Source: Atribacterota bacterium (GTDB lineage Bacteria > Atribacterota > Phoenicimicrobiia > Phoenicimicrobiales > Phoenicimicrobiaceae). Taken from it: a stretch of DNA of 29,692 bases. The notes under the pieces are model-generated. The model made no database searches and had not been told where the DNA came from. It worked only from the letters and a program-made list of their open reading frames with translations. Where the stretch lies: positions 1 through 29,692 of the forward strand of contig JBGPSO010000001.1 in assembly GCA_041490145.1 (NCBI GenBank). Reading direction: 5' to 3'. The position numbers and the translations under genes are program-made. Positions 1,492-26,315 of the stretch are shown piece by piece; the first letter of the stretch is position 1; the number at the start of each line of letters is the position of its first letter.

Positions 1492-1567
1492 GGGCCCATA
1501 GCTCAGTTGGTAGAGCAACCGGCTCATAACCGGTCGGTCCCTGGTTCGAGTCCAGGTGGGCCCACCA
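1492..1567 (+). tRNA. tRNA with CAT anticodon, most likely tRNA-Ile2 (lysidine-modified CAU)
   Basis: 76-nt cloverleaf: acceptor stem GGGCCCA/TGGGCCC, D arm AGCTCAGTTGGTAGAGC, anticodon arm ACCGG-CTCATAA-CCGGT, GGTTCGAGTCC T arm, A73 and encoded CCA. G1-C72 pair and no GGG/CCC anticodon stem argue against fMet; overall sequence resembles Bacillus/E. coli Ile2 tRNAs. Confidence 0.93.
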
Positions 1568-5178: not shown

Positions 5179-6861
5179 TTGCTTTCCAAAGAAAAAAAAG
5201 AACGTATTACTTTTTTATTCATATTATTTATAGTTTTTTATTTTTTATTAATTTATAGATTATATAACATTCAAGTTATTCAAAGTAATAAATTTGAAGA
5301 AATTGCCCAACAAGAACACCTTACTTCTTTTTCTATTGAAGGAGAGCGAGGTAATATTTATGATAGAAATTTAAAGAAGTTAGTTGTTAATGTTAATGTT
5401 CAATCCTTATTTGCTATCCCACCTAAAATTGAAAATCCTCGAGAGGCTGCTTTAAAAATATCTTTAATTTTAAATTTAGAAACAAAAGAGGTATTGGATA
5501 AATTAAATCAGAAAAGACCTTTTGTATGGATAAAGAGAAAATTAAATGAAACAGAAGTTGAAGAGATTAAAAAATTAAATTTAGAGGGATTAGATTTTTT
5601 AAAGGAGAGCAAAAGATTTTATCCCAAACAATATTTAGCTTCTAATTTAATGGGATTTGTAGGGATAGATAATCAAGGTTTGGAAGGTTTGGAGTTATTT
5701 TTTGATCAGGAATTAAAAGGATTACCTGGTTTAGTAGTTTTAGAAAGAGATGCTTCGGGAGACGAAATACCACTTAGCATTAAAGAACTAAATACTCATC
5801 GGGACGGAAATTCTATTGTTTTAACTATTGATGAATTTATACAATATATTACTGAAGAAGCTCTAGATAAAGCTTTTCAGAAATACAAAGCTAAAGCCGG
5901 AGTTGCTATTGTAGTAGAACCAAAAACTGGCGAAGTTTTGGCAATAGCAGTAAGACCTTCTTATGATCCAAATTATTTTAATAAATATACTCTTGATCTT
6001 TGGAGGAACCTAGCAATAACTAATACCTATGAGCCGGGATCAACCTTTAAAATCGTTACTATAGCTACCGCATTGGAAGAAGGAGTAGTTAAATTAGATG
6101 ATCAGTTTTATTGTAAAGGATGGACAAATTATAATGGACATATTTTTCACGATATACACCAACATGGCTCACAAAATCTTACCGATATAGTAAAGAATTC
6201 TTGCAATGTAGGTGTAATTCAAGTTGGAACAAGGTTAGAACAAAAGGTTTTTGAAAAATCTATTAGAAGATTCGGATTTGGAACGTTAACTGAAATAAAT
6301 TTACCTGGTGAAGTGAATGGATTAATAAGAAGTTCTAAAGATTGGTCAAAAATATCTTTAGCCTCTATATCTATAGGGCAGGAAATTTCAATAACTCCTA
6401 TCCAATTAATAATGGCTATATCAGCTATAGCTAATCGAGGGACTTTGATGAAACCGTTGATAGTAAAGGAAATTTTAGATTCTAATCAAAATAGCGTTAA
6501 AGTATTTAAGCCAAAGGCAGTGCGGCAAGTAGTATCAGTTGAAACAGCTTTAACTATGACTAAAATATTAGAACAAGTAGTGATTGATGGAACTGGCATG
6601 GAGGCAAAACTTGATGAATACCAGGTAGCAGGGAAGACTGGAACTGGTCAAATATTTGATTTTGCTACTGGTAAATACTCTAATAGTGCTTATGTTTCAT
6701 TATTTGTAGGTTATGTACCAGCTGAAAATCCCAAAATATCTATTTTAATTTTATTAGATCAACCTAAAGGTAGTTATTACGGGGGAACGGTGGCTGCTCC
6801 GGTATTTAAAGAAATTGCTTCCAAAGTCCTCCCTTATTTATCAATTCCACCCAATCAGTGA
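5179..6861 (+). CDS. ftsI: Class B penicillin-binding protein (FtsI/SpoVD family), no PASTA domain
   Basis: N-terminal TM, RGNIYDRN, PBP dimerisation domain, SxxK (GSTFK), SxN (SCN), KTG (GKTGTGQ). TTG start. Confidence 0.9.
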   Translation: MLSKEKKERITFLFILFIVFYFLLIYRLYNIQVIQSNKFEEIAQQEHLTSFSIEGERGNIYDRNLKKLVVNVNVQSLFAIPPKIENPREAALKISLILNLETKEVLDKLNQKRPFVWIKRKLNETEVEEIKKLNLEGLDFLKESKRFYPKQYLASNLMGFVGIDNQGLEGLELFFDQELKGLPGLVVLERDASGDEIPLSIKELNTHRDGNSIVLTIDEFIQYITEEALDKAFQKYKAKAGVAIVVEPKTGEVLAIAVRPSYDPNYFNKYTLDLWRNLAITNTYEPGSTFKIVTIATALEEGVVKLDDQFYCKGWTNYNGHIFHDIHQHGSQNLTDIVKNSCNVGVIQVGTRLEQKVFEKSIRRFGFGTLTEINLPGEVNGLIRSSKDWSKISLASISIGQEISITPIQLIMAISAIANRGTLMKPLIVKEILDSNQNSVKVFKPKAVRQVVSVETALTMTKILEQVVIDGTGMEAKLDEYQVAGKTGTGQIFDFATGKYSNSAYVSLFVGYVPAENPKISILILLDQPKGSYYGGTVAAPVFKEIASKVLPYLSIPPNQ

Positions 6862-7257
6862 GTGTATAGCATCTCGTGAATTGTATCTCGTTTTCTAGCG
6901 TAGAGCGGGTAGCGTTTAATATGTAGGATAATTAGTCAGTTAGTATTTAGTGAATAGTATTTAATAATAAAACGAAAAATTAAAAGCGCAAAATGCAAAA
7001 CTATAACTAAAAATTAAAAATTGAGATAAAAAGTTTTGAGTTTTGAATTATGGTTTTTCGCTTTTAGCTTTACGCTTTTAGCTGTAAAATGATAACTTAA
7101 AATTGAAAAATTGTATTCAAAACCAACGACTTTCACTATCGACTAAATTAACTGGTAAACAGGATAACTGGGTAACTATATACTCGATACGCGATACGTA
7201 ATATACAATACGAGGTTAGATTGAAACACTATACGCAATACGATATACTATATACGA
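6862..7257. repeat. Nested palindromic element A (three bracketed arm pairs plus one orphan octamer arm)
   Basis: Outer TAT(A/C)TCG/TAGCG arms 6862-6915 and 7179-7257. Middle TAGT-heptamer arms 6931-6961 and 7120-7150. Inner A-rich/T-rich heptamer hairpin 6969-7020 / 7034-7082. Unpaired TAACTGGT octamer run 7149-7178. No ORF. Confidence 0.75.
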
Positions 7258-7285
7258 ATCAGGGAAATTAGAGGTAATTTATTCT

Positions 7286-8758
7286 ATGAAGTTAAGCGAA
7301 CTGATAACTAACTTAGAAGTTAAGGAAGTTTTTGGCGATTTAAATTTAGATATTAAAGGAATTTACTATGACTCTCGAAAAATAAAGAGAGATTTTTTAT
7401 TTATATGCATAAGAGGTTTTACTTTCGATGGGCATCATTTTATTGCTGAAGCTATTAATAAAGGTGCTATTGCTCTTGTAGTAGAAAAAGAAATTAACCT
7501 CAGACCCGGTATTACTGTAATCAAGGTAAATGATAGTCGCAAAGCTTTAGCAATTTTAGCTAATCAATTTTATGGTTTTCCTTCCAGTAAATTAAAATTA
7601 ATTGGAGTTACTGGAACAAACGGTAAAACTACAATTACCTATATGTTGAGAATTATCTTGCAGGAAGCAGGTTATAAAACCGGACTTCTTGGTACTGCTC
7701 AAAACATAATTGGTGATAATATTGTCTCTTCTCATATGACTACTATGGAATCAGTCGATCTACAAAAAGCCCTCCAAGAAATGGTAGAAAAAAAGAATAA
7801 CTATGCGGTAATGGAAGTATCTTCACATGCCTTGCAATTATCTCGAGTAGAAGGCTGTAATTTTGATATAGCTATTTTTAGTAATATTAGTAGAGAGCAT
7901 TTCGAAATCCATAAAAACTTTTCTAATTATTTAGAGGCAAAGAAAAAATTATTTTTAAGTTTAAATAAAAGTAAAAAAGAAGCTTCTAAAAAATTTGCGA
8001 TAATTAATATTGACGAAGAGTATAGTAAAAATTTTATAGATTGTAATGAAGTCAATTTAATTACCTATGGAATAAAAAATGAGAGTAATGTTAGGGCTAA
8101 AAATATAGAAATGAATATTAAAAATTCTTCATTTATAGTGGAGACACCTATAGGTGATACTAAGATAGCTCTAAATTTTAGCGGAGTATACAACATATAT
8201 AATGCTTTAGCAGCTATAGCAGCATCTATTTCTCAGGGTATTCCTTTAAATATAATTTCCCAAGCTTTAGATAAGTTTTATGGGGCTCCTGGAAGATATA
8301 AAATGATTGAATATGGTCAGAATTATACTATTATTATAGATTTTGCTCACAATTATCATGGATTAGGGAATATATTACAGAATTTACGTACTTTTACTCC
8401 CCATCATATAATTACCGTATTCGGACATGGAGGAGAAAAATATAATAAGGTAAGAGTTACCATAGGAGAAGTTATAGGAAAATATAGTGATTATGTAGTA
8501 ATAACTGCTGACAACCCTAAAAGTGAGGATCCTAAAAAAATTGCTCAGGAGATTGAAAAAGGGGTTAAAAAAACCAATAAAGAATATATTATAATTACTG
8601 ACCGGGCCGAAGCTATTAAACATGCTTTAGGTAAAGCTAAAGAAGGAGATATAGTTTTGATAGCTGGGAAAGGACCTGAAAATGAACAAATCTATAAAAA
8701 TAAAATTCTTCACTATAATGATGAAGAAGTAGTAAGGAAAATATTAATGGAGAGATAA
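7286..8758 (+). CDS. murE: UDP-MurNAc-dipeptide amino-acid ligase MurE (divergent specificity motifs)
   Basis: GVTGTNGKTT P-loop, HMTTMES, VMEVSSHAL, AGKG. Carries DFAHN, GHGGEK and DNPK where canonical MurE has DYAHT, GCGGDR and DNPR. Confidence 0.88.
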   Translation: MKLSELITNLEVKEVFGDLNLDIKGIYYDSRKIKRDFLFICIRGFTFDGHHFIAEAINKGAIALVVEKEINLRPGITVIKVNDSRKALAILANQFYGFPSSKLKLIGVTGTNGKTTITYMLRIILQEAGYKTGLLGTAQNIIGDNIVSSHMTTMESVDLQKALQEMVEKKNNYAVMEVSSHALQLSRVEGCNFDIAIFSNISREHFEIHKNFSNYLEAKKKLFLSLNKSKKEASKKFAIINIDEEYSKNFIDCNEVNLITYGIKNESNVRAKNIEMNIKNSSFIVETPIGDTKIALNFSGVYNIYNALAAIAASISQGIPLNIISQALDKFYGAPGRYKMIEYGQNYTIIIDFAHNYHGLGNILQNLRTFTPHHIITVFGHGGEKYNKVRVTIGEVIGKYSDYVVITADNPKSEDPKKIAQEIEKGVKKTNKEYIIITDRAEAIKHALGKAKEGDIVLIAGKGPENEQIYKNKILHYNDEEVVRKILMER

Positions 8759-8761
8759 AAA

Positions 8762-10198
8762 TTGGAAGGATATAAAGTTACAGAATTGATAAAAGTTACC
8801 TCAGGAAGGTTAATTCAGGGTGACCAAGATCGCTTAATAAATAGAGTTTCTATAGATAGTAGGAATCTAGCTCCAGGTGATTTATTTTTTGCTATAATTG
8901 GTTCCCGTTTTGATGGACATAATTTTATTGGAGAAGCTCTTAATAAAGGGGCGGTGGGAGTAGTAATTTGTAAAAATATTGGTAATTTGTTACAGAAAGA
9001 AGAGCTAAATAAAGATAAAATTATTATAGAAGTAAAAGATACTCTTTCTGCCCTGCAAGATTGGTCTAAGCATTATAAAAATAAATTTAAAACTTTTAAT
9101 ATCTGCATTACCGGTAGTAACGGAAAGACCACCACCAAAGAGATCATTGCTCATATATTATCTCAAAAATTCTCCCTTTTAAAAACCTCTAGTAATTATA
9201 ACAACGAAATTGGAATCCCTCTTACTTTGTTACAGCTTAATGAATTACATCAGATATTAGTGGTAGAAATGGGGATGAGAGGTTTAGGAGAAATAAAAGT
9301 TCTTACTAATCTTGTCCATCCTGATTTAGCAGTTATTACTAATATTGGAGAAGCCCATATTGGTTTATTAGGATCAAGAGATAATATTTTTAAGGCTAAA
9401 TCAGAATTGTTACAATCATTAAACCAAGATGGTATAGTAATTTTAAATAGAGATGATCCATATTTCTTAAAGATGTTGGGAATGGTTAAAGGCAAGAAAA
9501 TAATTACCTTTGGCCTTGAGAATAAAAGTGATATTATGGCTTGTAATATCAGAATGATCAGTGACAGAGGAATGAAGTTTACCCTTAAAATAAAAGATGT
9601 TGAAGATCGAGAGATATTTTTCCCTTTATTAGGAAGGTATAACATTTATAACGCACTTGCTGCTTCTGCAACTGCTTTTGCTTTGGGAGTAGAAATGGAT
9701 TTAATTGAAAAAAGCTTATCTTCTTTTCAACCATTAGAAATGCATATGTATTTAAAGAATTTTTATGATGATATTAAAATCTTAAATGATTCCTATAATG
9801 CTAGCCCATTATCAGTAAAAAAGGCTTTAGAAACTTTAGTAGAAGTGTCACAAGGAAATAGAAATATAGCTATCTTAGGAGATATGCTTGAATTAGGAGA
9901 AAAGACTAACTTTTATCATCAAGAAATAGGAAGAGAAGTAGCAAAATTATCTATAAATACACTAATTACTGTTGGTAAAGGAGGAAAGATAATTGCTAAA
10001 TCTTCTAAAGATGAGGGAATGTCGGAAAGTAAAATTTTTTCTTTTGAGAAAAGTGAGAAGAAAAAATTGGCTAAAGAACTATTAAATCTAACTAGACCAG
10101 GAGATTTTGTCTTATTAAAAGGTTCTCGAGAAATGAAGATGGAAGAGATCTTAGAATTTTGGCAAAAAGAATATCGAAAAAATAATCTCACAATGTAG
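8762..10198 (+). CDS. murF: UDP-MurNAc-tripeptide--D-Ala-D-Ala ligase MurF
   Basis: SIDSR, ITGSNGKTTTKE, NYNNEIGIPLTL, VEMGM, NDSYNASP, LGDMLELG, LKGSR. Confidence 0.95.
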   Translation: MEGYKVTELIKVTSGRLIQGDQDRLINRVSIDSRNLAPGDLFFAIIGSRFDGHNFIGEALNKGAVGVVICKNIGNLLQKEELNKDKIIIEVKDTLSALQDWSKHYKNKFKTFNICITGSNGKTTTKEIIAHILSQKFSLLKTSSNYNNEIGIPLTLLQLNELHQILVVEMGMRGLGEIKVLTNLVHPDLAVITNIGEAHIGLLGSRDNIFKAKSELLQSLNQDGIVILNRDDPYFLKMLGMVKGKKIITFGLENKSDIMACNIRMISDRGMKFTLKIKDVEDREIFFPLLGRYNIYNALAASATAFALGVEMDLIEKSLSSFQPLEMHMYLKNFYDDIKILNDSYNASPLSVKKALETLVEVSQGNRNIAILGDMLELGEKTNFYHQEIGREVAKLSINTLITVGKGGKIIAKSSKDEGMSESKIFSFEKSEKKKLAKELLNLTRPGDFVLLKGSREMKMEEILEFWQKEYRKNNLTM

Positions 10199-10207
10199 GG
10201 GGGCATA

Positions 10208-11161
10208 ATGACCAATTGGCTATGGATAATTTTAATTTCGTTTATAATTCCAGTTATTACTTTGCCATTTTTTGTAAATTATCTTAAAAAGCATAAAATA
10301 GGACAGAGAATTCGTCAGGAAGGGCCAGATCTTCATCAACATAAAATGGGAATACCCACCATGGGAGGAATAATTGTTCTTCTTACTTTGCTAATAGTAA
10401 TTATACTGCTTGTCCCTTATAATAAATATATTTTATGGTCGTTAATCATTACTGTCGGTTTTGGCCTTATCGGTTTAATTGATGATTTAATAAAATATTT
10501 TAAAAAACGTTCATTAGGCCTTAAAGCTAGCTATAAATTATTTCTTCAAATTATCTTTTCTCTAATAGTTCTATTTTTTATTTATCCAATTGGTGATTTG
10601 GGTACAGAAATTTATCTTCCTTTTTTGAAGAAAAGTCTAGATTTAGGCAGGTTGTTTACACCTTTTGTAGTCTTGGTAATGATTAGCTCGGTAAATGCTT
10701 TAAATTTAACTGATGGTTTAGATGGACTAGCTACCGGATTGATATTTATTGCTATGTTGACTTTTGCTTTAATCGCCTATATTCAAAATATTTTGCCTAT
10801 GAGTCTTTTTTCTCTAATAGTTGCCTTTACTTGCCTCGGATTTTTAGTCTATAATTTTTTCCCGGCTCAAATATTTTTAGGAGATGTAGGTGCTTTTGCT
10901 TTAGGTGGCGCACTTGCATCTATAGCAATTTTTACTAAAACAGAACTATTTTTATTGATCATTGGGGGAGTATTTGCAATTGAAACTTTATCGGTAATCT
11001 TACAGGTAACTTCTGTAAAATTAAGAAAGAAAATTCTTTTTAAGATGAGTCCGATTCATCATCATTTTGAACTTTGTGGATGGCAAGAACCAAAGATTGT
11101 GATCAGGTTTTGGATAGCCGGAGTGATTTTCGCGTTTATTGGAATAGCTAGTTTTTTTTAA
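10208..11161 (+). CDS. mraY: Phospho-MurNAc-pentapeptide transferase MraY
   Basis: Polytopic membrane protein with GIPTMGG, IDD, NLTDGLDGL, FLGDVG and PIHHHFE. Confidence 0.96.
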   Translation: MTNWLWIILISFIIPVITLPFFVNYLKKHKIGQRIRQEGPDLHQHKMGIPTMGGIIVLLTLLIVIILLVPYNKYILWSLIITVGFGLIGLIDDLIKYFKKRSLGLKASYKLFLQIIFSLIVLFFIYPIGDLGTEIYLPFLKKSLDLGRLFTPFVVLVMISSVNALNLTDGLDGLATGLIFIAMLTFALIAYIQNILPMSLFSLIVAFTCLGFLVYNFFPAQIFLGDVGAFALGGALASIAIFTKTELFLLIIGGVFAIETLSVILQVTSVKLRKKILFKMSPIHHHFELCGWQEPKIVIRFWIAGVIFAFIGIASFF

Positions 11162-11180
11162 AAAAATTGCTTGGTGATTT

Positions 11181-11300
11181 GTTAGATAGTTATTTGGTTA
11201 TTTGGTTACTTGGTTAGTTAGTTGGATAATTGGTATAAACTGTATAATTTTGAATTTAATATTAACCAACTAACCAGCTAACTAATTAACCAACTAACTA
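11181..11300. repeat. Palindromic element B (TAAC/TTGGTTA 4-8-mer arms, 30-nt loop) at the usual murD position
   Basis: G/T-rich arm 11181-11230 (TATTTGGT repeats) is complementary to A/C-rich arm 11261-11300 (TAACCAAC repeats). Confidence 0.8.
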
Positions 11301-11322
11301 CAAAATATGGAGTTATAATGAA

Positions 11323-12444
11323 ATGATAATAGAAAAGAAATCTCCTGATCTATGGGTTTTTATAACTGTAATTATTCTAACGGCTATTGGCGTATGTATG
11401 GTCTTTAGTTCAAGCTATGTTATGGGTTATAAGTGGTATGGAGATAGTTATTATTTTTTAAAGAAACAATTATTTTTTAGTATAATAGCTTTAGTAGTAT
11501 TTTTTTTCGCCATATTTACCGACTACCATCACTTTAAAAAATTTGCTTTACCTCTCTTAATTTTATCTATTATTTTGCTATCAATGTTATTTATTCCAAA
11601 CCTTGGGAAATCTGCTGGGGGAGCAAAGAGATGGATTGTGATACCATTTCTTCCTTTCCAACCTCAACCTTCTGAACTGGCTAAATTTGCTTTAATTTTA
11701 TATATGGCAGAATTTTTAACTAGGAAACAATTAAAAGATATAAAAACATTTCTTAAAGGGATATTACCCTCAATAATTATTATGTTAGTTATGTTTTTCT
11801 TGATTTTAGAAGAACCTGATTTTAGTACTTCCTTAATCATTTTAGGTATTTCCTTTATTATGTTATTTATTGGTGGAACTAAGATAATTCAACTTTATTC
11901 GTTGATAATAGCCTCAATTCCTTTCGGGATTTTTATGTTATTAAAAGAAGAATATAGAAAGATAAGATTGCTTTCTTTTTTGAATCCATGGAAAGATCCT
12001 TTAGACAGTGGGTTTCATATAATACAATCTCTATTAGCCTTAGGTAGTGGTAAAATCTTGGGAATTGGATTGGGAGCGAGTAAGCAAAAATATTTTTATC
12101 TTCCTGATCAACATACGGATTTTATCTTTTCCATTATTGGGGAAGAGTTAGGATTTATAGGTACTCTTATAATAATTATTCTGTTTATAATATTACTATG
12201 GCGTGGATTTAGGATAGCTTTGAATTCAGTTGATGAATTTGGTACTTTATTAGCTGCTGGGATTACTTCTATGATAGTTTTTCAGAGTATAATCAATGTA
12301 GGAGTAGTAACTAAGATGATCCCTACTACTGGTATTACTTTACCCTTCATAAGTTTCGGAGGCTCATCTTTAATTATGAATATGTTTTGTGCCGGAATTT
12401 TATTGAATATTTCCCGATATAAAATAAAAGAGGGTGGAGTGTAA
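11323..12444 (+). CDS. ftsW: SEDS-family peptidoglycan polymerase FtsW
   Basis: GAKRWI, QPSELAK, EPDF, GFHIIQS, LPDQHTDFIF, GITLPFISFGGSS; position before murG. Confidence 0.95.
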   Translation: MIIEKKSPDLWVFITVIILTAIGVCMVFSSSYVMGYKWYGDSYYFLKKQLFFSIIALVVFFFAIFTDYHHFKKFALPLLILSIILLSMLFIPNLGKSAGGAKRWIVIPFLPFQPQPSELAKFALILYMAEFLTRKQLKDIKTFLKGILPSIIIMLVMFFLILEEPDFSTSLIILGISFIMLFIGGTKIIQLYSLIIASIPFGIFMLLKEEYRKIRLLSFLNPWKDPLDSGFHIIQSLLALGSGKILGIGLGASKQKYFYLPDQHTDFIFSIIGEELGFIGTLIIIILFIILLWRGFRIALNSVDEFGTLLAAGITSMIVFQSIINVGVVTKMIPTTGITLPFISFGGSSLIMNMFCAGILLNISRYKIKEGGV

Positions 12445-16296: not shown

Positions 16297-17076
16297 GTGA
16301 TAATGAAAATGTTTGCTGAAAGAGAAGAAGACAAAAAACCTCAACCTCTGGGAATAAAAATAAGTAAAATATTGATTTTTTATTTAATAATAGGTTTTCT
16401 AGGCTGGAATTTTTTTAATTTTATGTTTAACTCGAAATTTTGTAATATTGAAGAAGTTATAATTAAAGGAAATAGTTATCTTAGCGAAAATGAAATATTT
16501 GCTAAGTCTCAGATAAAATTAGGTAAAAATATCTTTAAGTTAGATTTAAATAAAGTTATAAACTCTTTAAAGGAAGAACCCTGGATAAGAGAATTAGAAG
16601 TAAAGAGGGTAATACCTAATAAAATAATCATTTCTTTAGAAGAAAGAAAAGCAGCAGCAATTGTATATATCGGAGAAGAATATTTTAGTTCGAGCAAAGA
16701 AGGAATAGTTTTATCTAAAATTGATAAAACCAAGAGAGAATTTAATCTACCTTTAATATTAGGATTAAAAATTACTGAAATAAAAATAGGTAAAAAAATA
16801 GATGAAACTGAGTTTAGGACAGCATTAGAAATTATTAATTCAGCAGAAGTGATATTACCTAAGAAATTTTGTATAATAAAAATATTAGCTCCAGACGATT
16901 TTATGATTTGCAATGAAGATGATACATTGAAAGTTAGAGTAAATAAACCAGAGGAGATTATTAATAAAGAAAAATTATTAAGAGAAGCTTTAGAAAAGAT
17001 TGAAAATGAGAAGTTATTAGTAGAATATATAGATATGAGTTTTAAAGATAGTTTAATAATAAAAGTAAAGAAATAG
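16297..17076 (+). CDS. ftsQ: Cell division protein FtsQ/DivIB
   Basis: TM segment, then POTRA-like region (IEEVIIKGN, GKNIF, PWIRELEVKRVIPNKIII.LEER) and C-terminal YIDM; sits before ftsA. Exact start (16297/16303/16309) is uncertain. Confidence 0.9.
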   Translation: MIMKMFAEREEDKKPQPLGIKISKILIFYLIIGFLGWNFFNFMFNSKFCNIEEVIIKGNSYLSENEIFAKSQIKLGKNIFKLDLNKVINSLKEEPWIRELEVKRVIPNKIIISLEERKAAAIVYIGEEYFSSSKEGIVLSKIDKTKREFNLPLILGLKITEIKIGKKIDETEFRTALEIINSAEVILPKKFCIIKILAPDDFMICNEDDTLKVRVNKPEEIINKEKLLREALEKIENEKLLVEYIDMSFKDSLIIKVKK

Positions 17077-20408: not shown

Positions 20409-23400
20409 ATGACGAATACCGTTAGAAAAAGAGAAGGTCAGTTAGTAGAATTTGATCGGAAAAAGATAGTTGAAGCTATTTTTGCTGCTATGCAAGTAAT
20501 GGGAGAAGAGAATAAATTCAGATCAGAAAAAATAACTGATCAAGTAATTAAAAAACTAGAAGAAAGATTTAAGGATAAGATTCCTCAGGTGGAAGAAGTT
20601 CAAGATATAGTAGAAGAAACATTGATTAAGGAAGGAATGGTAAAAGTCGCCAAAGCTTATATATTGTATCGAGATAAGAGAAGTAGAATTCGAGAAAGTT
20701 TAAAAGTTAGAAAAAAAATAAAAAATCATAAGAGTATGACCGATCTTTCCTTGTTGGTTTCTACTCCAGCTTCTGAGAATATCTTTCCCTGGGATAGAAA
20801 AAAAATTGTCCATGCTTTAGTTAAAGAAGCAGAACTGCCTTTGAATATTTCTAGGAAGATAGCTAAAGCAGTGGAAGAAAAGATATTCGATTTAGGATTA
20901 ATTGAGATAACTACTTCTTTAATTAGAGAATTGGTTGATAATGAATTATTTGCGAGAGGATACGAGCATAAGTGGAGAAAGCAAAAGATTATCGGAATAC
21001 CTACTTTTGATTTGAAACAATTATTCTTATCTAAGAGTAAAGAGAATAGTAATATTGGAACCAACAATCCAGAGGCGATAAACTTGACTATTGCTGAAAA
21101 TACTATTAAACAATATATGCTACAAGAAATTTTTTCCAAAGAAGTAGCTAATGCCCATTTAAAAGGTTGGATTCACATTCATGATTTAGGCTACCCTCGA
21201 ATTTATTGTTCAGGTCATTCCCTCGAATATTTAAAAAAATATGGTTTGAAATTAGAAAATTTAGATACTTCTTCTGCACCAGCTAAGCATACTAGAACTT
21301 TAACCGGTCATTTAAACACCTTTTTGGCTTCTATGCAAGCCTATTATGCTGGTGCTTTAGGTATTGGTTATTTAAACATCATTTACGCTCCTTTCTTAGT
21401 GAATTTACCTTTTAAAGAAATAAAGCAAGAAGCCCAATACTTAATATTTAGCGGTTCACAAAATGCTTTTTCAAGGGGTGGGCAATCGCTTAGAGGGAAA
21501 GAAAAAATATATGTTTACGATACTCAAGAAAAAGAATTAAAATCAATTCCCATTGAACGATTTTATCATAATTTCAATAAAGATAAAGATAGAGACAGGT
21601 ACTTTACAATAAGTATAGATCGGCTAACAGGAAAACCAGTATTAGGGAAAATATATCAAGCAATTAGACACCAAAGAAAAAATAAACTTGTAGAAATAAA
21701 AACAGGTTTAGGAGGAAAAATATGTGTTACCGATGACCATTCTTTATTTACGCTTAATAAAAATGGAGAAATTATTGAAATAAAGCCAAGCCAGAATCCA
21801 GAAAATATTTTATCTTTATCCTCCTTTCCAATTTATGATAATAAAAAAAATGTTGATGTTACCGATTATCTGTCAGAAGATTTATATGTAAAAATAAACG
21901 ATGAATATATCGATTTAAGATGTAATTCTCATTATCATAACAAATTAAAAATACATATTCCCCTAACTAAAGAGTTTGCTACTTTATTAGGATATTATGT
22001 AGCCGAAGGTAATTGTACCCCAACTTCTGTATTTATTTCTTGCCGGGATGACAAGGAAAAAGAAAATATTGCTCATTTAGTAAAAACAATTTTTGTAGAT
22101 GAAACCACAGTTACTATTTTACAGAAAGGGGTAAGATTTTCTGGTAGTTTATATAGTTCTTTGTTTAAGAAATTGTGCGGGAATGGAGCAATTAATAAAA
22201 AAATTCCTGATTTTATTCTTTTTGGAAAGGATGAAATTATAAAAGCGTTTCTTGCCGGATATCTTTCCGGTGATGGATATATAGAAAATAAAAATAAAAT
22301 TGGATGTAGTACAATTTCAGAAACATTAAAATCTCATCTCTGGTTAGTTTTTACTAAGATTGGATGCTTACCAACAATAAAGGATAAAGACCGGAGCAAA
22401 GAAAAAATTATTATTAAGGGTAATGAAGTAAAGAAAACCCATTTACAATATGTACTTACGATTGGGATAAACTCTTTTGATAAAGTTTATTTTTCTTTAG
22501 AAAGAAAAGAAGAAGAAAGAAAAAAATGTTTAGAAAGGTTTAAAAATAAACCTTCTTATAAACAATATGACCAGCGTAGATACGATTATAACCAATTGAA
22601 ACCTCTGATTAAAAAAATCTTTGGAGCTAAAATTTCTTTAAAATCTTATCCTCTTTCTGTGCAATGGATTGATAAAATAAAAAGAAGGGTAAATAATAGT
22701 CTAATCGGTTTGCCAAATCCTTCTGTGGAGGAAGTTGGTAAAGAAGAAATTCCTTTATTATTTAAAAAACTTTTTATTTTTGATAATGTTCAACCCCATA
22801 GTGATTTGAACTCTTCATCAATGTATTTTGATATGAGAAACATTAACTCTTTTCCTCAGCAAATTTTAGCAAAAAATATTATTAAGAAACAGATAAAAAG
22901 GCTTAAAAATCTAAAAAGTATATTATATAAAGCAAGTGATTTATTACCTGTAGAAGTAATTAATCAGAAAGAAATAAAAGAGCAAGATAGATATGTATAT
23001 GATATTTCTGTAGAAAAATACGAAAACTTTCTAACTACCGATGGTCTCCTTGCTCATAATAGCCTTTTTCTTGATTTTAATGTTCATCTAGGTATCCCTG
23101 AGTACCTTAAAAATGTGCCTGCAATTGGACCTGGAGGAGAATATACCGGGAAAAATTACGGAGAATACGAAATAGAATCTCAATTATTTTTAAAAGCTCT
23201 AATGGAAGTTTGGGAAGAAGGAGATTGTAATAAAAAAGTCTTTGCTTTTCCTAAAATGGATTTACATATTAATAATAGATCTTTCGAAGATCCTGAACAG
23301 AAAAAATTATTAGAATATGCGTGTGAAGTAGCCTCTGAAAATGGTTCGCCCTATTTTATTTTTGATCGAGATGATATAAGTTTAGCCTCCTGTTGCCGAT

Positions 23401-24410
23401 TAAGGACGAGAATAACTGATCAAGAAATGATAACCCATCCAGAAAAATTAAGGTTTGCCGGAATACAAAATGTTACCATCAATCTGCCCCAATGTTCCTA
23501 TAGAGCTTTTTCCAATAGGGGAATTTCCGACTCCTCTTTTAATTATAGTAAGATGGAAAATATAGAATTATTTTTTGAAAAAATTGATCAAGCCCTACAC
23601 TTAGCCATTCAAGCACATTTACAGAAGAAAAAATTTTTAAAAATGATGATGGTAAATTCAGATGGAGCCTTGTGGGAAATAGGTAAAATAGCGGAAGATG
23701 GTAAGCCTTATGTAGATTTAGATCAAGGTACCTATTTAATAGGATTAATAGGTTTAAATGAAGCAGTTCAATATATTTCTGGAGATCAGTTACACGAAAG
23801 TGAAAAGGCTTATAAATTAGGATTAAAAATTGTATCTTTTATGAGTTTAAAATGTGAAGAATATAGCGAAAAGTTTAATTTAAAATTATCCTTAGAAGAA
23901 TCCCCGGCGGAAAGTGCAGCGGGAAGATTGGCTAAAATCGATCTACAAGAATTTCCGGATAGTAAAAAAGTTATAAAGGGAAATCCTGAAAGAGATGAAA
24001 TTTATTACACTAATAGTATCCATTTTGCAGCTTCAGCACCTCTAGATTTAATTACTCGAATAGTCAAACAAAGTAAGTTTCACCCTTTAATAAAGAGTGG
24101 GGCAATAATTCATGCCTTTGTAGGAGAAAATCGACCTTCACCTGAGAGTATCTATAATTTAATAAAAAAAGTTTGGGAGAATACTCAGTGTTCTCAACTT
24201 ACTATTTCACCTGAATTTACTATATGTAATTTATGTAATAAAGTAAGTAGAGGACTGACAGAAAATTGTAATGATTGTGGAAGTAAAGATGTATACGGAG
24301 TAACCAGGATAGTAGGGTATTATAGTAAGATAACTAATTGGAATAAAAATAAAATCGGAGAGTTAAAAGATCGACATTCCGGAAACTATAAAGTCAAAAG
24401 TCAGGTTTAG
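20409..24410 (+). CDS. nrdD: Class III (anaerobic) ribonucleoside-triphosphate reductase, two N-terminal ATP cones, intein-containing precursor (about 808 aa after splicing)
   Basis: ATP cone (VRKREGQLVEFDRKKI...), HIHDL, IYCSGHS, finger-loop SCCRL, TPAE-like SPAES, YYTNS, Zn site CNLC...CNDC, glycyl-radical loop RIVGY. Confidence 0.95.
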   Translation: MTNTVRKREGQLVEFDRKKIVEAIFAAMQVMGEENKFRSEKITDQVIKKLEERFKDKIPQVEEVQDIVEETLIKEGMVKVAKAYILYRDKRSRIRESLKVRKKIKNHKSMTDLSLLVSTPASENIFPWDRKKIVHALVKEAELPLNISRKIAKAVEEKIFDLGLIEITTSLIRELVDNELFARGYEHKWRKQKIIGIPTFDLKQLFLSKSKENSNIGTNNPEAINLTIAENTIKQYMLQEIFSKEVANAHLKGWIHIHDLGYPRIYCSGHSLEYLKKYGLKLENLDTSSAPAKHTRTLTGHLNTFLASMQAYYAGALGIGYLNIIYAPFLVNLPFKEIKQEAQYLIFSGSQNAFSRGGQSLRGKEKIYVYDTQEKELKSIPIERFYHNFNKDKDRDRYFTISIDRLTGKPVLGKIYQAIRHQRKNKLVEIKTGLGGKICVTDDHSLFTLNKNGEIIEIKPSQNPENILSLSSFPIYDNKKNVDVTDYLSEDLYVKINDEYIDLRCNSHYHNKLKIHIPLTKEFATLLGYYVAEGNCTPTSVFISCRDDKEKENIAHLVKTIFVDETTVTILQKGVRFSGSLYSSLFKKLCGNGAINKKIPDFILFGKDEIIKAFLAGYLSGDGYIENKNKIGCSTISETLKSHLWLVFTKIGCLPTIKDKDRSKEKIIIKGNEVKKTHLQYVLTIGINSFDKVYFSLERKEEERKKCLERFKNKPSYKQYDQRRYDYNQLKPLIKKIFGAKISLKSYPLSVQWIDKIKRRVNNSLIGLPNPSVEEVGKEEIPLLFKKLFIFDNVQPHSDLNSSSMYFDMRNINSFPQQILAKNIIKKQIKRLKNLKSILYKASDLLPVEVINQKEIKEQDRYVYDISVEKYENFLTTDGLLAHNSLFLDFNVHLGIPEYLKNVPAIGPGGEYTGKNYGEYEIESQLFLKALMEVWEEGDCNKKVFAFPKMDLHINNRSFEDPEQKKLLEYACEVASENGSPYFIFDRDDISLASCCRLRTRITDQEMITHPEKLRFAGIQNVTINLPQCSYRAFSNRGISDSSFNYSKMENIELFFEKIDQALHLAIQAHLQKKKFLKMMMVNSDGALWEIGKIAEDGKPYVDLDQGTYLIGLIGLNEAVQYISGDQLHESEKAYKLGLKIVSFMSLKCEEYSEKFNLKLSLEESPAESAAGRLAKIDLQEFPDSKKVIKGNPERDEIYYTNSIHFAASAPLDLITRIVKQSKFHPLIKSGAIIHAFVGENRPSPESIYNLIKKVWENTQCSQLTISPEFTICNLCNKVSRGLTENCNDCGSKDVYGVTRIVGYYSKITNWNKNKIGELKDRHSGNYKVKSQV
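21486..23060 (+). mobile_element. Intein with LAGLIDADG homing endonuclease in NrdD (aa 360-884, 525 aa)
   Basis: Junctions RGGQ|SLRGKE and GLLAHN|SLF. Block B TDDHSLF, block C LLGYYVAEGN, block E FLAGYLSGDG, block F YVYDISVE, terminal His-Asn, +1 Ser. Confidence 0.93.
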
Positions 24411-25442: not shown

Positions 25443-26315
25443 TTGAACCAAGATTTTGAATTAAAAGAACTTGGACCAATAAAATATTTCCAATGTAGAG
25501 AATTAGATAATACCAACTTAGTAGTAAATGCTTTTAGCACGAGATTAGGTGGAGTAAGTAAATCTCCTTTTAATAGCCTTAATCTATCCTATCAGGTAAA
25601 TGATAAAGAAAATTGTGTTTTAGAAAATAGAAAAATAATTTCAGATATTTTGAATATTAACTATCGAAGTATGACCTCTGCCCAGCAGGTACATAAAGAC
25701 AAAATAACTGTCGTAAAAGAAGAAGATAAAGGCAAAGGAGCTTTTACACCTTCTGATGCGATTAAGGAAAGCGATGCTTTAATTACTAACCTCCCTGAAA
25801 TACCACTTTTAATGTGTTATGCTGATTGTGTACCTATTTTTATTTTAGATCCTATTAAAAAGGTTATTGGGTTAATTCATAGTGGAAGAAAGGGAACAGA
25901 ATTGGAATTAACCTTAAAAACATTGTTTAAGATGAAAACAATCTTCGGGACAACCCCCCGCTCCTGCTTAACTGCCATTTTTCCTTCCATTGGTCCCTGC
26001 TGTTATAATATTAAATTTCAAGATGAAACTGCTAATTATTGTTTAAGTGAAGACAATTTTAATAGTAAAGTAGTTTCTAAACGAAATAAAGATAGTTGGT
26101 ATCTTGATTTAAAAAAAGCAAATTATTTGCAATTGGTTAAGGGAGGAGTAGAGGAAAAGAATATTTTTGTTAATGAAATTTGTACTGCCGATCATCCTGA
26201 GCTTTTCTTCTCTTATCGGAGAGACAAGGGTAATACTGGGCGAATGGCGGCAATTTTTATGCTAAAAAAAGGAGGAGAGTATGCGAATAAAAGAGCACCC
26301 TATTCTGGAATTTAG
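25443..26315 (+). CDS. pgeF: PgeF/YfiH-family protein (peptidoglycan editing factor / purine nucleoside phosphorylase)
   Basis: FSTRLGGVS, QVH, DALIT, ADCVPI, HSGRKG, PSIGPCCY, CT..HPELFFSYRR...GRM. Confidence 0.92.
   Translation: MNQDFELKELGPIKYFQCRELDNTNLVVNAFSTRLGGVSKSPFNSLNLSYQVNDKENCVLENRKIISDILNINYRSMTSAQQVHKDKITVVKEEDKGKGAFTPSDAIKESDALITNLPEIPLLMCYADCVPIFILDPIKKVIGLIHSGRKGTELELTLKTLFKMKTIFGTTPRSCLTAIFPSIGPCCYNIKFQDETANYCLSEDNFNSKVVSKRNKDSWYLDLKKANYLQLVKGGVEEKNIFVNEICTADHPELFFSYRRDKGNTGRMAAIFMLKKGGEYANKRAPYSGI

Follow-up and report, generated by a model that had tools for sequence, protein, structure and literature searches.

The window analysed here, a stretch of 29,692 nucleotides from an Atribacterota bacterium of the family Phoenicimicrobiaceae (contig JBGPSO010000001.1 of assembly GCA_041490145.1), carries at positions 7286 to 8758 a murE gene whose product has an altered amino-acid pocket. 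Three otherwise conserved residues, Arg389, Asp390 and Arg416 of the Escherichia coli enzyme, are replaced by Lys, Tyr and Lys, and this R389K/D390Y/R416K triad is fixed across the family and absent from its sister family. MurE decides the peptidoglycan chemotype, and the chemotype rules in use ('DNPR = DAP, DNPA/N = Lys', where DAP is diaminopimelic acid) were drawn from a small number of assayed enzymes, all of which conform to them. The DNPR rule is broken here by an entire uncultured family, through a three-residue, family-fixed change for which the sister family forms a natural control. The enzyme is of a known type and represents a novel variant of it rather than a new kind of system. 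On balance it is probable, judging from the residues altered and retained, that the residue added by this MurE is still meso-DAP, or else a dicarboxylic analogue close to it, gripped by a re-wired clamp.

Identity and structure of the ligase

The open reading frame (ORF) at 7286..8758 (+) is a full-length murE coding sequence of 490 amino acids (aa). By its sequence the product is the housekeeping MurE, the sole one of the genome, and it is predicted to work as an ATP-dependent ligase and to join the third residue to uridine diphosphate-N-acetylmuramoyl-L-Ala-D-Glu (UDP-MurNAc-L-Ala-D-Glu). Searches with hidden Markov models (HMMs) gave 489 bits against TIGR01085 (cut-off 257) and 550.9 bits against the DAP-ligase equivalog NF001126 (cut-off 373); the score of 352 bits against the L-Lys-ligase model NF010628 lies under its cut-off of 536. 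The protein is composed of the Pfam domains PF01225 (Mur_ligase), PF08245 (Mur_ligase_M) and PF02875 (Mur_ligase_C). An AlphaFold model built with 73 homologues as input has a mean predicted local distance difference test score (pLDDT) of 94.3 and matches the crystal structures of the Staphylococcus aureus (4C13), Mycobacterium tuberculosis (2XJA), Thermotoga maritima (4BUB) and E. coli (1E8C) enzymes with template modelling (TM) scores of 0.89-0.93. The features of the gene that matter for what follows are listed here, with aa positions of the window protein; elsewhere the numbering is that of published E. coli MurE (sequence number minus 1).

7610..7630 (+): P-loop TGTNGKT, aa 109-115; G110, T111, G113 and K114 are invariant in alignment A1, and T109, N112 and T115 are at least 90% conserved
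7940..7942 (+): K219, equivalent to the carbamylated Lys224 of E. coli; present in 73/73 family sequences and invariant in alignment A1
8438..8443 (+): K385-Y386 (AAA TAT), equivalent to E. coli R389-D390; first half of the triad, in the loop just ahead of helix 387-400
8510..8521 (+): DNPK, aa 409-412, equivalent to E. coli D413-N414-P415-R416; K412 (AAA, 8519-8521) is the third triad residue
8666..8680 (+): GKGPE, aa 461-465; G461 corresponds to E. coli G464 and E465 to E468, so that these D-centre contacts are retained

A preliminary description of this DNA had drawn attention to five strings, all of which lie in this ORF where they had been placed: FGHGGEKYNKVR at 8420-8455 (with the K385 codon AAA at 8438-8440 and the Y386 codon TAT at 8441-8443), the DNPK string listed above, ISREHFEIH at 7886-7912, DFAHNYHG at 8339-8362 and GKGPENEQ at 8666-8689.

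A three-residue change confined to one family

Comparisons were based on 120 close homologues and on the MurE of 78/86 Atribacterota genomes. The window's own family, Phoenicimicrobiaceae (f1), has MurE sequences that are 64-100% identical to the query, the sister family (f2) lies at 53-60% and families f3-f7 at 37-45%. An alignment of 73 f1, 42 f2, 11 f3-f7 and 127 diverse representative MurEs together with E. coli MurE was searched for columns fixed in f1 for a residue that differs from an otherwise conserved one. Four such columns were found, namely a trivial Val to Ile change at E. coli position 31 (Ala in E. coli itself), R389K, D390Y and R416K. By alignment K385 of the window protein is equivalent to R389, Y386 to D390 and K412 to R416, which upholds the earlier claims that both DAP-contacting arginines are Lys and that the pocket has been specifically remodelled; D390Y is a third change, beyond the two Arg to Lys swaps noted at that stage.

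All 73 of the f1 sequences carry K389, Y390 (F in one) and K416. The R/D/R combination is kept in 42/42 f2 and 11/11 f3-f7 sequences, and in the 127 wide representatives the three columns are R, D and R in 91-97% of cases; the K/Y/K triad occurs in 0/53 other Atribacterota and 0/127 diverse representatives. D390Y is the least conservative of the three changes, and the D390 column is 97% Asp among the 127 non-fused representatives of the nearest-cluster set. Of six conserved Arg columns, f1 retains 192, 341, 394 and 443 and alters precisely the two that contact substrate carboxylates, and of seven conserved Asp columns it alters D390 alone, with 356, 406, 413, 458 and 482 among those retained. 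K119, E182, H210, K224, H359, D413, E468 and G464 are intact in f1. The set for ATP and Mg binding and catalysis (P-loop GxxGKT, E182, H210, carbamyl K224, D356 and H359) is intact in 73/73 family sequences, and the D-centre contacts D413, N414, G464 and E468 are all present and family-invariant. Over the whole protein, fixed differences between f1 and f2 amount to 7 columns, 3 of which are the triad.

All three codon changes are single-base: R389K from AGR to AAA, D390Y from GAY to TAT, and R416K from AGA or CGN to AAA. In the structural model the loop 381-390 is the lowest-confidence stretch (mean pLDDT 78), and the place of K385-Y386 ahead of helix 387-400 would be consistent with capping of that helix by the usual Asp390.

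The other unusual motifs of the protein follow a different distribution. DFAHN.HG and GKGPE are present in every Atribacterota family, and the His to Pro change at aa 464 (E. coli His467) is phylum-wide. IS.EHFEIH is seen in the window's order alone (f1 and f2), its search pattern being without a match in f3-f7. GGEKY together with DNPK is restricted to f1 within Atribacterota; f2 and f3-f7 have GGERD and DNPR. Since three of the five deviations first noted are shared with relatives that have GGERD and DNPR, they are lineage markers unrelated to the Arg to Lys swaps. An apparent 'DTPE' variant in one Atribacterota genome (G065) proved to be a pattern artefact, the MurE there having GGERD and DNPR.

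Origin of the triad

The phylogeny covered 202 MurEs and groups the Atribacterota sequences in one clade (support 0.993), within which f1 plus f2 has a support of 1.0 and f1 a support of 0.999. By this topology and the alignment, the triad arose once, vertically, in the f1 stem. It has been kept unchanged since, at an overall identity of the f1 proteins that has fallen to 64%; such invariance across sequences this different indicates that the new state is under purifying selection. DNPK is common in Thermotogota and Bipolaricaulota, but horizontal transfer from them was considered and rejected, as Atribacterota MurE is monophyletic.

Neutral or composition-driven drift, by which an AT-rich genome would turn Arg codons into Lys codons and leave a triad without functional meaning, is improbable. 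The three changes are indeed single-base and AT-enriching (AGA to AAA, GAT to TAT), in a genome of 33% guanine plus cytosine (GC). However, f2 is nearly as AT-rich (locus GC of 35.8%, against 33.6% in f1) and its MurE equals that of f1 in Arg content (4.0% in both), but R/D/R is retained there; the four other conserved Arg columns remain Arg in 73/73 f1 sequences; and drift would not account for a triad that is invariant across f1 at 64% identity.

The gene stands in the division and cell wall (dcw) cluster, between these neighbours:

5179..6861 (+): class-B penicillin-binding protein (PBP) gene, FtsI/SpoVD-like; upstream neighbour of murE
8762..10198 (+): murF, downstream neighbour of murE; conserved sites without family-specific change

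It had been proposed that the protein might be a specialised paralogue. Seed plants offer a precedent, as DNPK is common there in MurE-like subunits of the plastid RNA polymerase such as PAP11, so that a paralogue or non-enzymatic MurE-like protein was weighed here too and is regarded as very improbable. No second MurE was found over the cut-off in the whole genome, where the weaker Mur-ligase matches are MurF, MurC, MurD (contig C245) and FolC (contig C255), and the idea of a second murE was accordingly rejected; no f1 genome has more than one MurE. The single-copy gene lies in the dcw cluster, its ATP-binding, Mg-binding and carbamyl-Lys residues are all intact, and it descends vertically within the monophyletic Atribacterota MurE clade, all of which speaks against the proposal.

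DNPK in other lineages

The nearest set comprised the 149 closest 50%-identity cluster representatives from 1.84 billion proteins; in it the R416 column holds R in 139 and K in 0, and the R389 column holds R in 141 and K in 8, so that the state of the window protein goes well beyond what chance would produce. A scan with the pattern T.DNPK.E[DNEK]P over 185,579 species genomes returned at least 120 matches. Among the matches listed, at least 88 are MurE, with at least 15 from f1 and at least 73 from elsewhere; the non-f1 enzymes listed include many from Thermotogota (the cultured Athalassotoga saccharophila among them), many from Bipolaricaulota/Acetothermia, some from Clostridia, and others from metagenome-assembled genomes of Acidobacteria and Bdellovibrionales. 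With about half of 30 f1 species captured, DNPK MurEs may, as a rough estimate, total perhaps 150-200 species, on the order of 0.1%. DNPK is rare but recurrent: K416 has at least 7 origins in the MurE tree, and Tyr390 is found in none of those outside f1.

The Thermotogota and Bipolaricaulota DNPK enzymes carry GG[DE][AS]DR in the manner of T. maritima, with position 389 occupied by Ser or Ala and position 391 by Arg, and by analogy the walls of these organisms may follow the Thermotoga Lys type. Athalassotoga saccharophila has no MurE besides its DNPK enzyme. Brassicibacter mesophilus DSM 24659 and Clostridium sp. UBA2485 have three MurE-family genes each, one of which encodes DNPK:

L209:1483-3006: Brassicibacter DNPK paralogue, with GGEKGK and DNPK, outside the dcw cluster
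L210:1489-2949: Clostridium sp. UBA2485 DNPK paralogue, outside the dcw cluster

Both Clostridia also carry a canonical GGDRD/DNPR MurE, the Brassicibacter copy being situated between a SpoVD-like PBP gene and mraY. The neighbours of the DNPK paralogues (hydrogenase, nrdG and unknown genes) give no functional hint, and the literature searched held nothing on Brassicibacter wall chemistry. On sequence grounds the two paralogues are candidate ligases, in Clostridia that are culturable or near-culturable.

The amino-acid pocket and its substrate

The contacts in E. coli MurE run from R389 to the L-centre carboxylate, from R416 to both carboxylates, and from D413, N414, G464 and E468 to the D-centre (PMC9434261). 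The arginines of GGDR and DNPR thus bind meso-DAP, as the preliminary description had stated, but R389 does not serve as the DAP discriminator that it was taken to be: the L-centre carboxylate is common to every substrate, and the equivalent of R389 is retained in the Lys-adding MurE of S. aureus (R383) (PMC9434261). It is also dispensable elsewhere, since T. maritima MurE, which has Ser at 389 by alignment, efficiently adds DAP in vitro (PMC9434261). Lys-type MurE has an uncharged residue (Ala) at 416 within an acidic pocket (PMC3829189). Nothing was found in the literature searched on a role of Asp390 or on an R416K mutant.

Three single-base changes in the f1 stem lineage would have rebuilt the carboxylate clamp of the amino-acid pocket. 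Two lysines, perhaps aided by the Tyr hydroxyl, would replace the two arginines that grip the two carboxylates, and the triad would represent a co-adapted re-wiring that serves the same function. We infer these roles of K385, Y386 and K412, their co-adaptation and the substrate. With both positive charges retained and a negative one gone, the pocket becomes more basic, the opposite of the acidic Lys-type pocket with Ala416. A more basic pocket with its D-centre contacts kept argues against a cationic side chain (Lys or ornithine, Orn) and for a substrate with a second carboxylate.

The f1 genomes have an operon lysA-dapA-dapF-dapL, with dapA in 27/29 genomes, dapF in 18/29, lysA in 23/29 and a dapL-like aminotransferase gene adjoining dapF; the operon is contiguous in a same-genus genome (G036, contig C117), and frequencies of lysine and DAP genes in f1 are similar to those in f2. 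The operon being kept, meso-DAP would be available to the family, and this supply combined with the pocket charges makes meso-DAP the likeliest substrate. An OmpA-like DAP-binding domain was found nowhere in the window's genome, which is uninformative.

Several points weigh against continued use of meso-DAP. The 97% conservation of D390 extends to Lys-type enzymes, and its replacement is non-conservative. Three concerted changes limited to a substrate pocket are what a shift in specificity classically looks like. In the two Clostridia, DNPK enzymes exist beside a canonical DNPR MurE, suggesting that K-type pockets act differently there. Every experimentally authenticated DAP enzyme has DNPR (PMC3681970), and DNPK, which might have turned out to be common in verified DAP-adding MurE, is found in none of them; the literature searched contained no assayed MurE with Lys at 416. 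DNPK has been described just for seed-plant MurE-like proteins, where it is common and where ligase activity is unproven, and one report gives L-Lys instead of DAP in angiosperm plastid peptidoglycan (PMC9954125). No wall chemistry was found in the literature for any Atribacterota. Finally, tblastn and HMM searches of the window's own genome found lysA alone, split over two contig ends (C260:1282-2430 and C212:5-115), and not dapA, dapB, dapF or a dapL-like gene. The missing dap genes are most simply an assembly gap, for which the fragmented assembly (291 contigs, N50 of 7.3 kb) is the best explanation.

Under changed specificity, the K/Y/K triad would select a third residue other than meso-DAP, such as LL-DAP, meso-lanthionine, a substituted DAP or an epsilon-linked D-Lys as in Thermotoga. 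This alternative is rated as possible though rather unlikely. It draws on a triple change that is limited to the clamp, fixed family-wide and unaccounted for by base composition, on the 0/149 count of K416 among the nearest representatives, on the DNPK paralogues in Clostridia, on the many DNPK MurEs of Thermotogota and Bipolaricaulota, the lineage of the Lys-adding T. maritima enzyme, and on the plastid report of L-Lys (PMC9954125). Against it, the positive charges are kept while Asp390 is lost, which disfavours Lys and Orn by the logic of PMC3829189; D413, N414, G464 and E468 are invariant; and the DAP operon is intact in f1. The partner enzymes point the same way: FemAB-type bridge enzymes are absent (0/29 f1 genomes), which is weak evidence, and an f1-specific change at conserved sites of MurF was not found, which is likewise weak, as MurF is known to be tolerant. 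Genes of an alternative diamino-acid pathway that differ between f1 and f2 were not found among the few families tested. That Phoenicimicrobiaceae peptidoglycan has a third stem residue other than meso-DAP, with the triad as the switch relative to the DNPR-bearing sister family, is accordingly entertained as a tentative proposition, held to be doubtful.

Relation to known enzymes

The meso-DAP-adding MurE enzymes (EC 6.3.2.13) of E. coli (1E8C) and M. tuberculosis (2WTZ/2XJA) resemble the window enzyme in their three-domain fold, P-loop, carbamyl-Lys, D413, N414, G464, E468 and dcw position. At about 31% identity, the window enzyme differs from them by R389K, D390Y and R416K, and by the phylum-wide changes of His467 to Pro and of DYAHTPD to DFAHNYHG. 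The f2 enzymes (for example P0088), with 53-60% identity, have DFAHN.HG, GKGPE and IS.EHFEIH in common with it and differ by GGERD and DNPR; the f3-f7 enzymes share DFAHN.HG and GKGPE and differ in the same two motifs. The gene order is the same in these families.

The best sequence match in the PDB (306 bits) is T. maritima MurE (4BUB), which uses L- and D-Lys in vivo and DAP in vitro. Both enzymes are without Arg389, yet T. maritima has GGNSDR (Ser389, Asp390, Arg391) and DDPR with Arg416, whereas the window protein has Lys389, Tyr390 and Lys416. The top structural match (TM 0.92) is the L-Lys-adding S. aureus MurE (4C12/4C13; EC 6.3.2.7). Equivalents of its D406 and E460 are present in the window protein, but the S. 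aureus enzyme retains Arg383 and Asp384, its pocket is acidic with Ala at 416, and the window protein is under the cut-off of NF010628. Seed-plant PAP11 of the plastid RNA polymerase (8W9Z) has DNPK in common with the window protein; it is an RNA polymerase subunit with long extensions and unproven ligase activity, in contrast to a compact bacterial dcw enzyme. The DNPK MurEs of Athalassotoga, Bipolaricaulota and Clostridia have Lys416 in common with the window enzyme, and that of Brassicibacter also has Lys389 and is without Asp390. These other prokaryotic enzymes differ by their independent origins and by having no Tyr390, and the Clostridia copies are extra paralogues off the dcw cluster.

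Implications

If DAP is still used, two 'essential' arginines are replaceable together, which bears on annotation rules, on inhibitor design and on the plant DNPK proteins. In anoxic subseafloor sediment, JS1 Phoenicimicrobiaceae rank with the most abundant bacteria, and many deep sediments are dominated by the family. If DAP is not used, JS1 walls are chemically unlike what has been assumed, and this would affect DAP and muramic acid as markers of necromass and biomass in sediments.

The genome and the gene neighbourhood

The genome, that of an uncultured subseafloor bacterium, is of the JS1 type of Atribacterota and amounts to 1.76 Mb at 97.6% completeness. The nearest named relatives are Ca. 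Infernicultor (96% identity) and Ca. Sediminicultor, both placed by NCBI in Atribacterota, class Phoenicimicrobiia (JS1). The window has the gene order rlmN, transfer RNA (tRNA), RNase P RNA, mraZ, rsmH, ftsL, class-B PBP, murE, murF, mraY, ftsW, murG, murC, murB, an ORF in the ftsQ position, ftsA, ftsZ, nrdR, nrdD, nrdG and pgeF.

Within the dcw cluster, murD is out of its usual slot between mraY and ftsW (window 10208-12444) and was found on contig C245 (L005:946-2358; TIGR01087, 387 bits). No ddl was seen between murB and the ftsQ-like ORF; the latter (16297-17076, +, 259 aa) has no NCBIfam match at E <= 1e-5. The spacer of 425 bp between the PBP gene and murE (6862-7285) contains ORFs of at most 40 aa only and has no Rfam match.

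Just upstream of mraZ lie a tRNA gene at 1492-1564 (+) and a class A RNase P RNA gene at 2519-2903 (+; 304 bits); the latter is overlapped by a probably spurious minus-strand ORF (2400-2837). At the other end of the window, NrdD (20409-24410, +) is an anaerobic ribonucleotide reductase of 1333 aa that bears an intein, as judged from a C-terminal splicing motif at aa 862-885 and from residues 414-744, which match intein-bearing archaeal proteins (RNA polymerase A'' and V-type ATPase A models). Downstream of nrdG, and near the dcw cluster, a homologue of the peptidoglycan editing factor PgeF is encoded at 25443-26315 (+).

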